Shown in pieces: positions 33,781 to 37,045 of a stretch of 64,000 nt of DNA. Source of the stretch: Candidatus Heimdallarchaeota archaeon (lineage in GTDB: Archaea; Asgardarchaeota; Heimdallarchaeia; Heimdallarchaeales; Heimdallarchaeaceae). The notes beneath the pieces are model-generated. The model ran no database searches and was not told where the DNA came from. It was given only the letters and a program-made list of their open reading frames with translations. Numbering within the stretch: the stretch's first letter is position 1; the number at the start of each line of letters is the position of its first letter. The translations under genes and the position numbers were made by a program. Where the stretch lies: contig JAHLWR010000004.1 of the NCBI GenBank assembly GCA_019057815.1, positions 1 to 64,000 of the forward strand, in the 5' to 3' direction.

Positions 33781-33792
33781 CTGGTGTGTAAC

Positions 33793-35301
33793 ATGGATGA
33801 AAGCAAACCTAGAAGAAGTTCCTCTAAAGGAAAACAAAAGAATAATCACGATTATATTGAGAAACAAGTTCTCGAAGTAATTCAAATACAAAAAGACCCA
33901 CATGCTGAAATTGGAGAAGTCTTATCAATTCTAAAAGAAAAAATTCAAATGGATTTAGTTTCACTTGGAGTAGCTGGTAGAGTAGCAATTCAAGGTTCTT
34001 TTGTTAGAAAAACTTATCTTAGTGATGACGATTCCTTTGATCTACTAATTATACTCCCAAAATCAGAGAAACCAAATGTTCACTCCATTTTAGATTCGCT
34101 TCTTAAAAGATTGAAAAAAGATAGAGTCAAGAAAGAAAAAATAGAAGTTACAAAAATTACTGGTAAAATACCTTATTTGCGCCTATTCGCAGGAAATGAA
34201 AAAATACATCTTTTTGTTGGATTTGATATATCACAGGGAGAGGAGAAAATATCCATTTTTGATTATATTCCATATCATAGCCAATATATCTTAACTCATA
34301 TGGATAAGAAAGTCAGGAAAGATGTAGTTTTACTCAAGAAATTCACAAAAGCTATTGGAGTTTACAGGGACGACTATGGTGCTATAGGATTCAATGGATA
34401 TTTATGTGAACTTCTGATATTGTTTTATGGTTCTTTTAGAGAAACACTAAAAGGAATCTGTAAATGGAGGGCAAGAACTGTTATCGATATTAAGAAAGCA
34501 CGATTGAAATTTGAAGATGTTGACGAGCTTTCAGTCGAAATGATTTATGGTTATTATCCAATATATGTCCCCGACCCTTTATACAGAAAAGAAAATATAG
34601 CAGCAGATGTTTCAGTTGATCAATTTAATTCTATAATTGCCGCTGCTAATTATTATCTCAGCAAACCAAGTTTACTATTTTTTGAAGAGTCATTATATGA
34701 AATACCTCTCTTCAATGAGATAGTGCATAAAGTTGTTAATTCGAAAAAAGAAATAATAGTATTAGCTATTCCAAGAAATTTCCAAGAATCTGGGGTTTCA
34801 TGGCAAAAAGCACTAAGTATTAGGAAGGCACTAGAACAAGAACTAATCAAGCACTACTACATGTTAGAAAGGAGCAAACCTTTTGTCTCCGATGATTATT
34901 ATGGTACAATTTTATCTCTTATGACCCCTAACCCTCAGTTATCACAAAGAAAAGAAGGACCCGAAATTATATCAGAAGAGTCGGTGAAATTTCTAGATAG
35001 ATATGCCAAACACATGGATGTTATTTCTGGACCTTTCATCGATTATGGCAAATGGGTGGTATATTTCAGTAAAAGAGGTCAACCAGTTTATGAATTCATT
35101 TCAGCATTAGTGAAAAAGAATGCTTTTATTCTAAATGTTGATTCTTTCCTAAAATTGGAAATTAAAGAAAAACTGAAGGTTATAGGAGTTGACCAAAATC
35201 TTCAACAGATGTATGAAACAGATGATTCATTTGCTGAAAATCTTTTCTTGTTTGTAGTCAGAAAACCTTTATGGGTTCATACACTAGAATTCGAGGAATG
35301 A
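33793..35301 (+). CDS. Class I CCA-adding enzyme homologue, catalytic motifs degenerate
   Basis: GSFVRKTYL, LLKKF, GFNGYLCELL..YGSF, DP....NIAA, GP; syntenic with thpR; lacks E/DxD and third Asp. Confidence 0.82.
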   Translation: MDESKPRRSSSKGKQKNNHDYIEKQVLEVIQIQKDPHAEIGEVLSILKEKIQMDLVSLGVAGRVAIQGSFVRKTYLSDDDSFDLLIILPKSEKPNVHSILDSLLKRLKKDRVKKEKIEVTKITGKIPYLRLFAGNEKIHLFVGFDISQGEEKISIFDYIPYHSQYILTHMDKKVRKDVVLLKKFTKAIGVYRDDYGAIGFNGYLCELLILFYGSFRETLKGICKWRARTVIDIKKARLKFEDVDELSVEMIYGYYPIYVPDPLYRKENIAADVSVDQFNSIIAAANYYLSKPSLLFFEESLYEIPLFNEIVHKVVNSKKEIIVLAIPRNFQESGVSWQKALSIRKALEQELIKHYYMLERSKPFVSDDYYGTILSLMTPNPQLSQRKEGPEIISEESVKFLDRYAKHMDVISGPFIDYGKWVVYFSKRGQPVYEFISALVKKNAFILNVDSFLKLEIKEKLKVIGVDQNLQQMYETDDSFAENLFLFVVRKPLWVHTLEFEE

Positions 35302-35336
35302 CATGAATTTTGTGTGTACAAATTCTTTAGAAGTGC

Positions 35337-35384
35337 TTGATAGCATTCATCCCCCACCTAAAGAAAGGGGACTTCTGCTATCAA
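35337..35384. repeat. IS200/IS605-end-like (REP-like) hairpin
   Basis: TTGATAGCA...TGCTATCAA 9-bp IR enclosing ATTCATCCCCCACCTAAAGAAAGGGGACTTC. Confidence 0.55.
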
Positions 35385-35494
35385 CCGTCGTCCACTGAGT
35401 GTAGAAAAGTTGACTAATCTTGCCATAAGCATCCGAACTACAAAAATGGCGATGTAGAAGGAGAGTAAAAACTAACTCTTTTTTCTTTTACGGG

Positions 35495-35502
35495 TTTATA
35501 TA
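35495..35502 (+). promoter_or_regulatory. TATA box upstream of candidate ncRNA
   Basis: TTTATATA about 25 nt before the first stem, between convergent genes. Confidence 0.5.
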
Positions 35503-35524
35503 TGAAATTAAAAATATATAAGTA

Positions 35525-35760
35525 GAGATAGTGTGATCATCACTACTTACCTGTTCTGCAACTACACAAGTGGTTGTCCCTCAGTCAACTCTAAATGAAA
35601 CAGGGAGCCTAGCTAGCTCTGTGTTGATGACACACTACCTATAATGGAAAAGTCTTCATGACTACCCCTCAACGCACGTGAGGGGTCAAGGGTGAAATCC
35701 CTTCAAACGACGGTTAGAAAGCCTCTGGCAAGTTTAACCAAGTTTCATAACGTGCGTTAA
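35525..35760 (+). ncRNA. Unknown highly structured ncRNA with pseudoknot
   Basis: At least eight stems with G-U pairs favouring the + strand, T-loop-like arm AAGGG-TGAAAT-CCCTT, 9-nt loop/tail complement AACGCACGT/ACGTGCGTT; no ORF. Confidence 0.65.
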
Positions 35761-35809
35761 AATGTCTGTTAACAGTAAGAAAAAATAAAGAAAAGGAAAT
35801 ATGAAGAAT

Positions 35810-37045
35810 TTAGAAGATTTTTAATTCTCTTCCAATATCTTCGAACTTCCCAAGAGATAAGTCTAGATGCTCTTTTGTTAGTCCTGTATTCATCATTACT
35901 CTAATCCTAGATGTTCCGCGAGGAACCATTGGAAACATGATTGGTAAAGCAAAAATCCCTTCTTCCATCAAACGATCACTCATCTTTTTAGCAGTCTCAT
36001 TTTCACCGCAAATTACAGGAACAATAGCAGTTGGACATTTTGCTGCAGCAGCTGTAATTGGGTGACTGAAACCGATATTCACAATCTCCTTCTTGAAATA
36101 ATCACAATTATCCAAGAGCTTTGCAACAACAGGTTCAAAGAACTCAGATTTTGGATTAAGTACTTCTAAGGAACCAATAGCAGCTCCTGCAATAGCAGGG
36201 GGAGGAGAACCACTTAAAAGATAGGAACGGGCAGTATTTCTAAGGAAGTTTATCAAATCTTTAGAACCAGTTATTGAGCCTCCAACAACACCCATTGCTT
36301 TGCTGTAAGTGTTCATTTCAACTTGAACTTTACCTTGAAGATCAAAATGGTCTACAATACCCTTACCCTTCTTATCTCGACCTAAAACACCATCTCCATG
36401 AGCATCGTCAACAAAAATCATCGCACCATAATCTTCGCATAATTTCTGTATCTCATCTAGAAGAGACATATCTCCATCCATTGAAAATACCCCGTCTGTT
36501 AGAACAAGTATCCTTTTTTCACCATTTGGATCTTCTTTATCAGCTTCATGTAATCTGGCTTCAAGCTCACCCATATCATTGTGCTTGTATATTGATCGTT
36601 TAGTTTTAGTTAATCTCACTCCATCAATAATACTTCCATGATTTAGTTCGTCACTAATGATAAAATCATCCCTTCGTACCAAGGGTGGAATAGCTCCTTC
36701 ATTAGCTATGAAACCGCTCATGAAAACTATTGCAGCTTCTTGTTCTTTGAACTCTGCATGTTTTTGTTCCCATTCTTCATGGATAACCATGTTACCAGCA
36801 ATAGCTCTAACTGAGCCTGATCCTGCACCATATTTTTCGACTGCCTCTATTGCGCGTTTTCTTAAGTGAGGATGATTACTAAGATTCAAATAATTATTAG
36901 AACAAAGCATCAAAAGTTCTTTGCCTTCAACTATAACATTAGGAACAGAAGGAGTCTCTAATTTTCTGTGGACCCATTCTCTACCTTCTTTTTGTATTTG
37001 CTTATATTCTTCTTTTAAAAATTTCGTAGGTTTTCTTTTAGCCAT
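35810..37045 (-). CDS. Glycine C-acetyltransferase / alpha-oxoamine synthase family
   Basis: CSNNYLNL, DELNHGSIIDG, DGVFSMDGD, DDAHG, TYSKAMG, PMVPRG..RIR. Confidence 0.9.
   Translation of the reverse strand: MAKRKPTKFLKEEYKQIQKEGREWVHRKLETPSVPNVIVEGKELLMLCSNNYLNLSNHPHLRKRAIEAVEKYGAGSGSVRAIAGNMVIHEEWEQKHAEFKEQEAAIVFMSGFIANEGAIPPLVRRDDFIISDELNHGSIIDGVRLTKTKRSIYKHNDMGELEARLHEADKEDPNGEKRILVLTDGVFSMDGDMSLLDEIQKLCEDYGAMIFVDDAHGDGVLGRDKKGKGIVDHFDLQGKVQVEMNTYSKAMGVVGGSITGSKDLINFLRNTARSYLLSGSPPPAIAGAAIGSLEVLNPKSEFFEPVVAKLLDNCDYFKKEIVNIGFSHPITAAAAKCPTAIVPVICGENETAKKMSDRLMEEGIFALPIMFPMVPRGTSRIRVMMNTGLTKEHLDLSLGKFEDIGRELKIF

Follow-up and report, generated by a model that had tools for sequence, protein, structure and literature searches.

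The gap of 508 bp between two convergent genes in the window (i.e. the whole stretch of 64,000 nucleotides of Heimdallarchaeal DNA that was analysed) most probably encodes a mobilised stand-alone omega RNA, which has its own TATA promoter and would be used in trans by the nuclease TnpB to cut its vacated insertion site. The scaffold is very probably a guide RNA of ~233 nt (35525-35757, + strand), carried by a gene-less element that spans 35389-35757. A stand-alone OMEGA-type RNA was one of the suggestions made in a first-pass annotation of the same DNA and it is supported by a 3' module shared with the end of the TnpB gene, by an exact right end, by a variable flank and by the co-occurrence of RNA and protein.

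The gap, which the first-pass annotation had put at about 500 bp, is bordered on the left by the gene for an archaeal CCA-adding enzyme (33784-35301, + strand) and on the right by a class I/II aminotransferase gene (35810-37045, - strand), and it contains no ORF of at least 40 aa. All the segments quoted in that annotation were found in place, including the TATA box ahead of the RNA, which lies in a conserved block. The structured RNA is real, but the single region proposed for it (35495-35760) does not delimit the unit, since the repeat unit reaches upstream to 35389. In the homolog of the CCA-adding enzyme, the second and C-terminal domains are matched and the catalytic NTP_transf_2 domain is matched weakly (E = 0.006, below cut-off). 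Two distinct palindromic repeats of ~40 bp adjoin the element on the left (35300-35340 and 35340-35381; motifs GAATTT..AAATTC and ATAGCA..CCCC..GGGG..TGCTAT); each has at least 10 further copies in the genome, and they may be REP- or terminator-like elements. The features of the locus are the following.

35384 to 35388, + strand: left-junction motif ACCGT, either a candidate TAM that includes a GT core dinucleotide or the start (5 nt) of the left end
35389 to 35757, + strand: the whole gene-less, non-autonomous IS607-derived element, found in 5 near-full copies without ORF in this genome (G000)
35389 to 35425, + strand: left end, common to an autonomous IS607-type element (95% over 42 nt)
35460 to 35489, + strand: small hairpin followed by a T-tract (the tract in all copies, type B included), a possible insulating terminator ahead of the promoter
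35489 to 35506, + strand: promoter block TACGGGTTTATATATGAA with the TATA box at 35495-35502, conserved in types A and B and in both genera
35529 to 35637, + strand: Domain 1, i.e. helices P1-P4 and the invariant internal loop GUCCCUCAGU, supported by covariation
35529-35546/35621-35637, + strand: P1, Domain 1 helix
35550-57/35597-604, + strand: P2, Domain 1 helix
35558-65/35570-77, + strand: P3, Domain 1 helix
35605-08/35616-19, + strand: P4, Domain 1 helix
35644 to 35659 (35644-48/35655-59), + strand: P5, hairpin ATGGA/TTCAT, with stem equivalents in the other genus
35665 to 35685, + strand: P6, hairpin CCCCUCA/UGAGGGG with the 7-nt loop ACGCACG (35672-35678), its stem invariant in 31 copies
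35688 to 35703, + strand: P7, hairpin AAGGG/CCCUU, an insertion specific to the genus
35705 to 35745, + strand: P8, made up of AAAC/GUUU, GGUUAGA/UUUAACC and an inner CC/GG, supported by covariation
35751 to 35757, + strand: 3' strand of the pseudoknot, CGUGCGU, with which both the scaffold and the transposon right end terminate in all copies
35758 to 35777, + strand: presumed guide segment, i.e. the flank read through from the scaffold, its length assumed from other TnpB systems

The RNA folds far better than expected by chance: the + strand reaches -81.9 kcal/mol against -59.8 +/- 4.6 for shuffled sequences (z = -4.8, with 0 of 200 shuffles as good), and the - strand has a z of -2.4. The comparison with Rfam that the first-pass annotation had called for, HEARO included, returned no family. 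With Rfam 15 there was no match at the gathering score anywhere in the 64-kb window, nor at E <= 10 any match overlapping the stand-alone RNA, and the tnpB-linked form of the RNA was likewise without a match; ARAGORN reported neither a tRNA nor a tmRNA. The large structured families in Rfam (HEARO, RNase P, SRP, group I/II introns) are multi-helix non-coding RNAs like the present one, yet none of them matches it, and tRNA, tmRNA, group I/II introns and HEARO are ruled out by ARAGORN and Rfam. RNase P had been considered for the sake of GGAAAAGUC- and AAGGGUGAAA-like strings; these are coincidental, as the canonical archaeal RNase P RNA of this genome is located on a different contig (G000:C42:2095-2419, 149.5 bits).

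Domain 1, which had been read as a closed multi-helix structure on the basis of the single sequence, holds up in comparison with its homologs. In a first alignment of 18 copies from 10 genomes, the proposed structure has 91.8% of its cells paired, a share that falls to 34-42% once the 3' partners are slid, and 12 pairs show compensatory changes; the count for P5 in this alignment is low because MAFFT misaligned that hairpin. In a second, model-guided alignment of 26 distinct copies, which leans towards the structure of the covariance model, 88.6% of the Domain 1 cells are paired (35-47% when slid), compensatory changes occur in 23 of the 37 pairs and the covariation score is 0.335 (0.04-0.10 when slid). 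The covariation among homologs that the annotation had proposed as a check is thus present in Domain 1 and in the pseudoknot, and its remark that the G-U pairs favour the + strand is true of P3, where they are maintained on that strand only. A second structural type (type B) is abundant in the other genus and agrees with type A in left end, T-tract and promoter block. Its Domain 1 shows the same P1-P2-P3 architecture and unpaired GUCCCUCAGU as type A with different helix sequences, P3 being ACAGGUG/CACCUGU in type B and CAACUAC/GUGGUUG in type A. A covariance model of Domain 1 that was built from type A alone recovers the type B variants with scores of 30-42 bits, each of them ~130 nt ahead of a core match.

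The 3' part of the RNA, i.e. the core, is built around a pseudoknot. The loop of P6 (ACGCACG) forms its 5' strand and pairs over 7 bp with the last bases of the scaffold (35672-78 with 35751-57); 98% of these pairs are formed among 31 copies, and two of them show double compensatory changes (G-C to A-U and C-G to U-A), with G-U intermediates as well. The pseudoknot that had been proposed from a complement of 9 nt therefore stands, but the conserved complement covers just 7-8 bp, because T35758 already belongs to the flank. P8, into which the previously noted GGTTAGA/TTTAACC helix falls, is paired in 97-99% of cells and has compensatory changes in two pairs. Other proposals for this part of the molecule had to be revised: the AGTC/GACT stem is not conserved and the overlapping ATGGA/TTCAT (P5) is conserved instead, with CCAGA/TCTGG and GCAGA/TCTGC as its counterparts in the other genus, and AAGGG/CCCTT is not a T-loop-like arm but the genus-specific insertion hairpin P7. 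The latter is confined to the stand-alone copies of this genome and its sister genome (G001) and is absent from the other genus and from the tnpB-linked copies; in one copy a different hairpin is inserted at its place.

The link to TnpB is provided by the core itself. In this genome, three ORFs of 652 aa carry the 3' 82-94 nt of the RNA (P6, P8 and the terminal ACGTGCGT) at their own 3' ends; 41 nt belong to the ORF and 40 nt follow its stop, so that P6 in the tnpB-linked copies falls within the final codons. Several homologous ORFs of the other genus end in the core in the same way. RNAalifold gave no convincing conserved structure upstream of P6 in the tnpB-linked copies. In many tnpB copies of genus g3 the ORF stops ~10 codons earlier, at a TAG through which the protein match reads on into the P6 hairpin, and the overlap between ORF and guide RNA thus differs between the genera.

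The 652-aa ORF matches the Pfam family Cas12f1-like_TNB and, weakly, the NCBIfam families guided_TnpB, IS607_TnpB and Cas12f2. The AlphaFold2 model of the protein has a mean pLDDT of 83.3 and its top Foldseek matches are all Cas12f or TnpB guide-RNA complexes (E ~2e-8). Judged by these matches and the predicted structure, the protein is a TnpB/Cas12f-type nuclease. D434 (RuvC-I), E533 (RuvC-II) and H618 are invariant in 25 family members, the histidine standing at the expected place of the RuvC-III Asp within the motif H-x-N-A-A-x-N-I. Conserved Asp-to-His replacement at RuvC-III is catalogued for TnpB branches by Altae-Tran et al. (PMC10691335); we found no bench test of this trait. Besides the three close genes, a distant paralog of the 652-aa TnpB, with 42% identity to it, is present at G000:C22:28169-30037, near which the core RNA model has no match, and paralogs with 40-46% identity occur in most genomes of the second genus.

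In one copy (G000:C27), tnpB (L036:1594-3552) is preceded by a gene for an IS607-family serine-recombinase TnpA (L036:992-1504), which matches NF033518 at 2.2e-44 (151 bits, cut-off 110) as well as the Pfam domains Resolvase and MerR. Positions 35384-35425 of the window match L036:856-897, just upstream of this tnpA, at 95% over 42 nt. Given the upstream tnpA and the matching left end, the complete autonomous element corresponds to G000:C27:145855-148591 (2.7 kb). The unit in the window has both ends in common with this element (the right end at 83% over 93 nt) and neither of its genes. The tnpA genes of this genome amount to one cognate, two relics of it and two distant paralogs.

Five near-full copies of the ~370-bp unit are present in this genome (83-92% identity), next to fragments, and many further copies are found in a second genus of the same Heimdallarchaeal family. 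The flanks of every copy are unrelated, the other four full copies in this genome having different neighbours. In 7 of the 7 copies inspected, A(C/T)CGT directly precedes the left end (CGTCC...), and the right end of every copy reads ...ACGTGCGT (...CATAACGTGCGT), after which the sequences diverge. A comparison of occupied and vacant sites in the two sister genomes defines these ends further. The flanks of a copy in the sister genome read ...CATAACCGT / CGTTCACTG ... ACGTGCGT / TCTTGTTGAAGG, and the vacant orthologous site in this genome reads ...CATAACTGT / TCTTGTTGAAGG, with ACTGT at the place of the motif. GT is thus present at both junctions of the copy and once in the vacant site, a pattern that agrees with insertion at a GT core by a serine recombinase, without duplication of the target. 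In the opposite direction, a copy in this genome (G000:C8) is missing from the sister genome, where the flanks are 94-95% identical and GCTGAC replaces ACCGT and the element. These comparisons fix the right boundary exactly at 35757 and narrow the left one to 35384-35389. The two vacant sites differ (ACTGT versus GCTGAC), and since both carry something other than A(C/T)CGT this motif has the standing of a candidate TAM. The junction TGCGT that arises at the right end could protect occupied sites.

At the locus in the window, homology with the sister genome resumes exactly at 35758. Between the genes for the CCA enzyme and the aminotransferase, the place that 35318-35757 (the element and the two small repeats) has in the window is taken in the sister genome by a 1.1-kb segment that looks coding (G001:C12:9161-10256, L041); metagenome contigs show this latter arrangement as well. 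The history of the site is not simple, since this genome lacks that 1.1-kb segment. No AYCGT is present beside the guide match at this locus in the sister genome. The presumed guide differs between all copies and that of the window has no second exact match in the genome, its near matches being without the junction motif. A partial copy elsewhere in this genome (G000:C33:86897-87057, L032) consists of the 3' part of Domain 1 and the core, and 20 nt of its right flank resemble the guide of the window (~15/21); this likeness suggests a duplication or conversion that took in the flank.

Transcription is predicted to start near 35524-35527, given the usual spacing between TATA box and start in archaea, and this would coincide with the 5' end of P1. 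Over 48 nt, the promoter block and its surroundings share ~75% similarity with the DNA that precedes tnpB. One contig from a metatranscriptome run covers 35489-35759 at ~94% identity, yet it runs 238 nt into another flank, its ends are those of a repeat assembly and it may derive from DNA.

The core RNA and TnpB share the same distribution. The core model (R1) matches 25 of the 83 genomes of the class, with up to 27 matches per genome, and all of these belong to genera g1 and g3 of one family. The TnpB protein is likewise confined to these two genera (2/2 genomes of g1 and 25/25 of g3; none in g2, g4 and g5). Core matches outnumber the nuclease genes: there are 12 of them versus 3 close tnpB genes in this genome, and of the 26 in one other genome (G017) 4 abut a tnpB match. 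Domain 1 is found only alongside the core or as a relic. In the tnpB-bearing full element it was not detected, the Domain 1 model scoring at most 11.6 bits anywhere there. It is read as an accessory 5' domain that is conserved and peculiar to the stand-alone RNAs. As the tnpB-linked RNA has nothing detectable in its place, the two RNAs may not be loaded onto one protein in the same way, which counts against the omega RNA reading. An origin of Domain 1 in the tnpB ORF is not supported: the 14-mer TGTCCCTCAGTTAG is common to the ORF (L036:2470-2483) and the Domain 1 of type B, but the Smith-Waterman score of 46 lies within the range of the shuffles (33.8 +/- 4.5, maximum 53).

Other explanations of these data can be conceived. 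The locus might be a decaying transposon remnant, in which the conserved positions are DNA sites of the transposase and no functional RNA is made. Parts of P8 and the left end indeed form imperfect inverted repeats (TGGCAAGT at 35727-35734 with TCTTGCCA), as would suit binding by TnpA, the copy in the window has a few helix-breaking changes (125.9 bits versus 139 for the best copies) and the sole contig from an RNA library could be carry-over of DNA. Nevertheless, the compensatory changes in Domain 1 and in the pseudoknot are unexpected from the conservation of DNA sites, the G-U pairs are kept on one strand only and both structural types and both genera retain the TATA block, so that we consider a mere remnant very improbable. 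That the RNA would be a new self-cleaving ribozyme, a member of another RNA class with no relation to TnpB or a CCA-enzyme ligand, as the first-pass annotation had also offered, is hardly credible: the lack of an Rfam match and the complex covarying structure with its pseudoknot would suit a new class, but tnpB genes and the transposon end physically include the 3' module, and the RNA is multi-copy, mobile and limited to genomes in which TnpB is present. Binding to the CCA-adding enzyme is contradicted by the neighbours, which differ at every copy, and by the sister genome, in which the element is missing at this locus.

A role of the stand-alone RNAs as co-opted regulators, either together with a non-cutting Asp-Glu-His TnpB (TldR-like) or via an antisense action of Domain 1 on tnpB, is improbable as well, although several observations point in its direction. 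The RuvC-III Asp is replaced by His throughout the family, Domain 1 is special to the stand-alone copies, and its loop CUCAGUAA is complementary to UUACUGAG, located 3-8 nt before the tnpB start in this genome and in one genome of g3. More generally, the invariant loop GUCCCUCAGU(A/U)A (35576-35587) is complementary to ACUGAG, which occurs in the left end (35394-35399) and in the tnpB leaders (L033, L034, L036). The complement between loop and leader measures 8 bp in this genome and one genome of g3, 6-7 bp in most others of g3, and 8 bp with the type B loop in one. Against such a role, the guides match only their own flanks, the mobility and the variation in copy number fit selfish spread, and Altae-Tran et al. 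(PMC10691335) argue that enzymes with a conserved rearranged site are probably active. Moreover, the loop and the 5' UTR do not clearly covary, and a role at the DNA or promoter level is equally possible, as ACTGAG is also present in the left end and the ORF; the loop motif is found inside the tnpB ORF in the same sense, too. The complementarity may reflect RNA-RNA control, a DNA site or common descent.

The reading as a mobilised omega RNA that serves TnpB in trans implies the following course of events. The RNA would be transcribed from its own promoter and read on into the flank, which would supply a guide specific to the copy. TnpB, made from one of the three tnpB-bearing copies, would then bind the pseudoknotted core in trans. 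Movement of the mini-element would depend on the single cognate TnpA of the genome; upon excision by TnpA the rejoined site, which would combine the left-junction motif and the guide match, could be cut, and the element might subsequently be restored by repair from a sister copy. A guide that equals the element's own flank and matches nothing else in the genome fits the model of homing and retention, which has been shown for TnpB systems of IS605 and IS607 (10.1101/2023.03.14.532601; 10.1101/2023.11.20.567912).

The kind of element is already known: mobilised omega RNAs that stand alone have been described for OMEGA systems (Altae-Tran et al., summarised in PMC10691335), and omega RNAs are also encoded by PATE-like elements, which derive from IS605 and lack genes (Meers et al., 10.1101/2023.03.14.532601). 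Like these, the present element lacks a protein gene, retains the transposon ends and the guide-RNA scaffold, occurs in multiple copies beside effector-bearing elements and would need nuclease and transposase in trans. It differs from the described cases by its serine-recombinase lineage (IS607, in contrast to the Y1-type IS605 of PATE), by its host, an Asgard archaeon, by a conserved TATA promoter of its own, preceded by a T-tract, and by an additional covarying 5' domain of ~110 nt (Domain 1), which has at least two structural types and is lacking in the nuclease-linked RNA.

The omega RNA of ISDra2 TnpB (PDB 8h1j) is organised likewise: its scaffold stops at the right end of the transposon and overlaps the 3' end of tnpB, the flank supplies the guide, and a pseudoknot joins the bases that immediately precede the guide to a segment further upstream (PMC10097598). 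Nevertheless, there is no sequence similarity between the two RNAs, the 5' strand of the present pseudoknot is a hairpin loop ~80 nt upstream, the present core encloses one long stem (two in this genus) where ISDra2 has four, and the present TnpB (652 aa) is ~250 aa larger and has a His at RuvC-III. The IStron of Clostridium botulinum, an IS607 element, has a serine-recombinase TnpA and an omega RNA at the right end, as is the case here. A core dinucleotide at both junctions, which the TAM would include, and insertion without target-site duplication would be further traits in common; they were shown experimentally for an IS607 element with a GG core (10.1101/2023.11.20.567912), and the candidate core here is GT. 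The present system differs in that it has no group I intron, an oversized TnpB and gene-less derivatives with a dedicated promoter.

As a more far-reaching and rather doubtful proposal, Domain 1 may have evolved as a functional module solely in the stand-alone RNAs of Heimdallarchaeal IS607 elements, with the gene-less elements as active partners or regulators of the nuclease. The domain might serve to load the RNA onto the 652-aa His-type TnpB at its enlarged helical lobe or, alternatively, exert feedback on tnpB expression via the loop that is complementary to the tnpB 5' leader. If this were true, the module would make the gene-less elements active partners and not passive hitch-hikers. Apart from this proposal, the analysis adds a covariation-supported Asgard family of omega RNAs that is missing from Rfam, together with an oversized Asp-Glu-His TnpB, and opens to experiment the benefit of a stand-alone guide RNA to a transposon, the cutting of DNA by a His-type RuvC and the contribution of a 5' domain. 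In terms of annotation, it accounts for a recurrent orphan structured RNA and for many contig breaks in Heimdallarchaeaceae genomes.

Two further observations concern Domain 1. A relic of Domain 1 alone (L034:4675-4810, - strand, on G000:C21) begins at the predicted transcription start, terminates in P5 and abuts the 3' end of a truncated tnpA, upstream of a tnpB copy. The loop of P4 (C-UAGCUA, 35609-35615) is nearly invariant and self-complementary, which makes a loop-loop (kissing) dimer of two RNAs conceivable.
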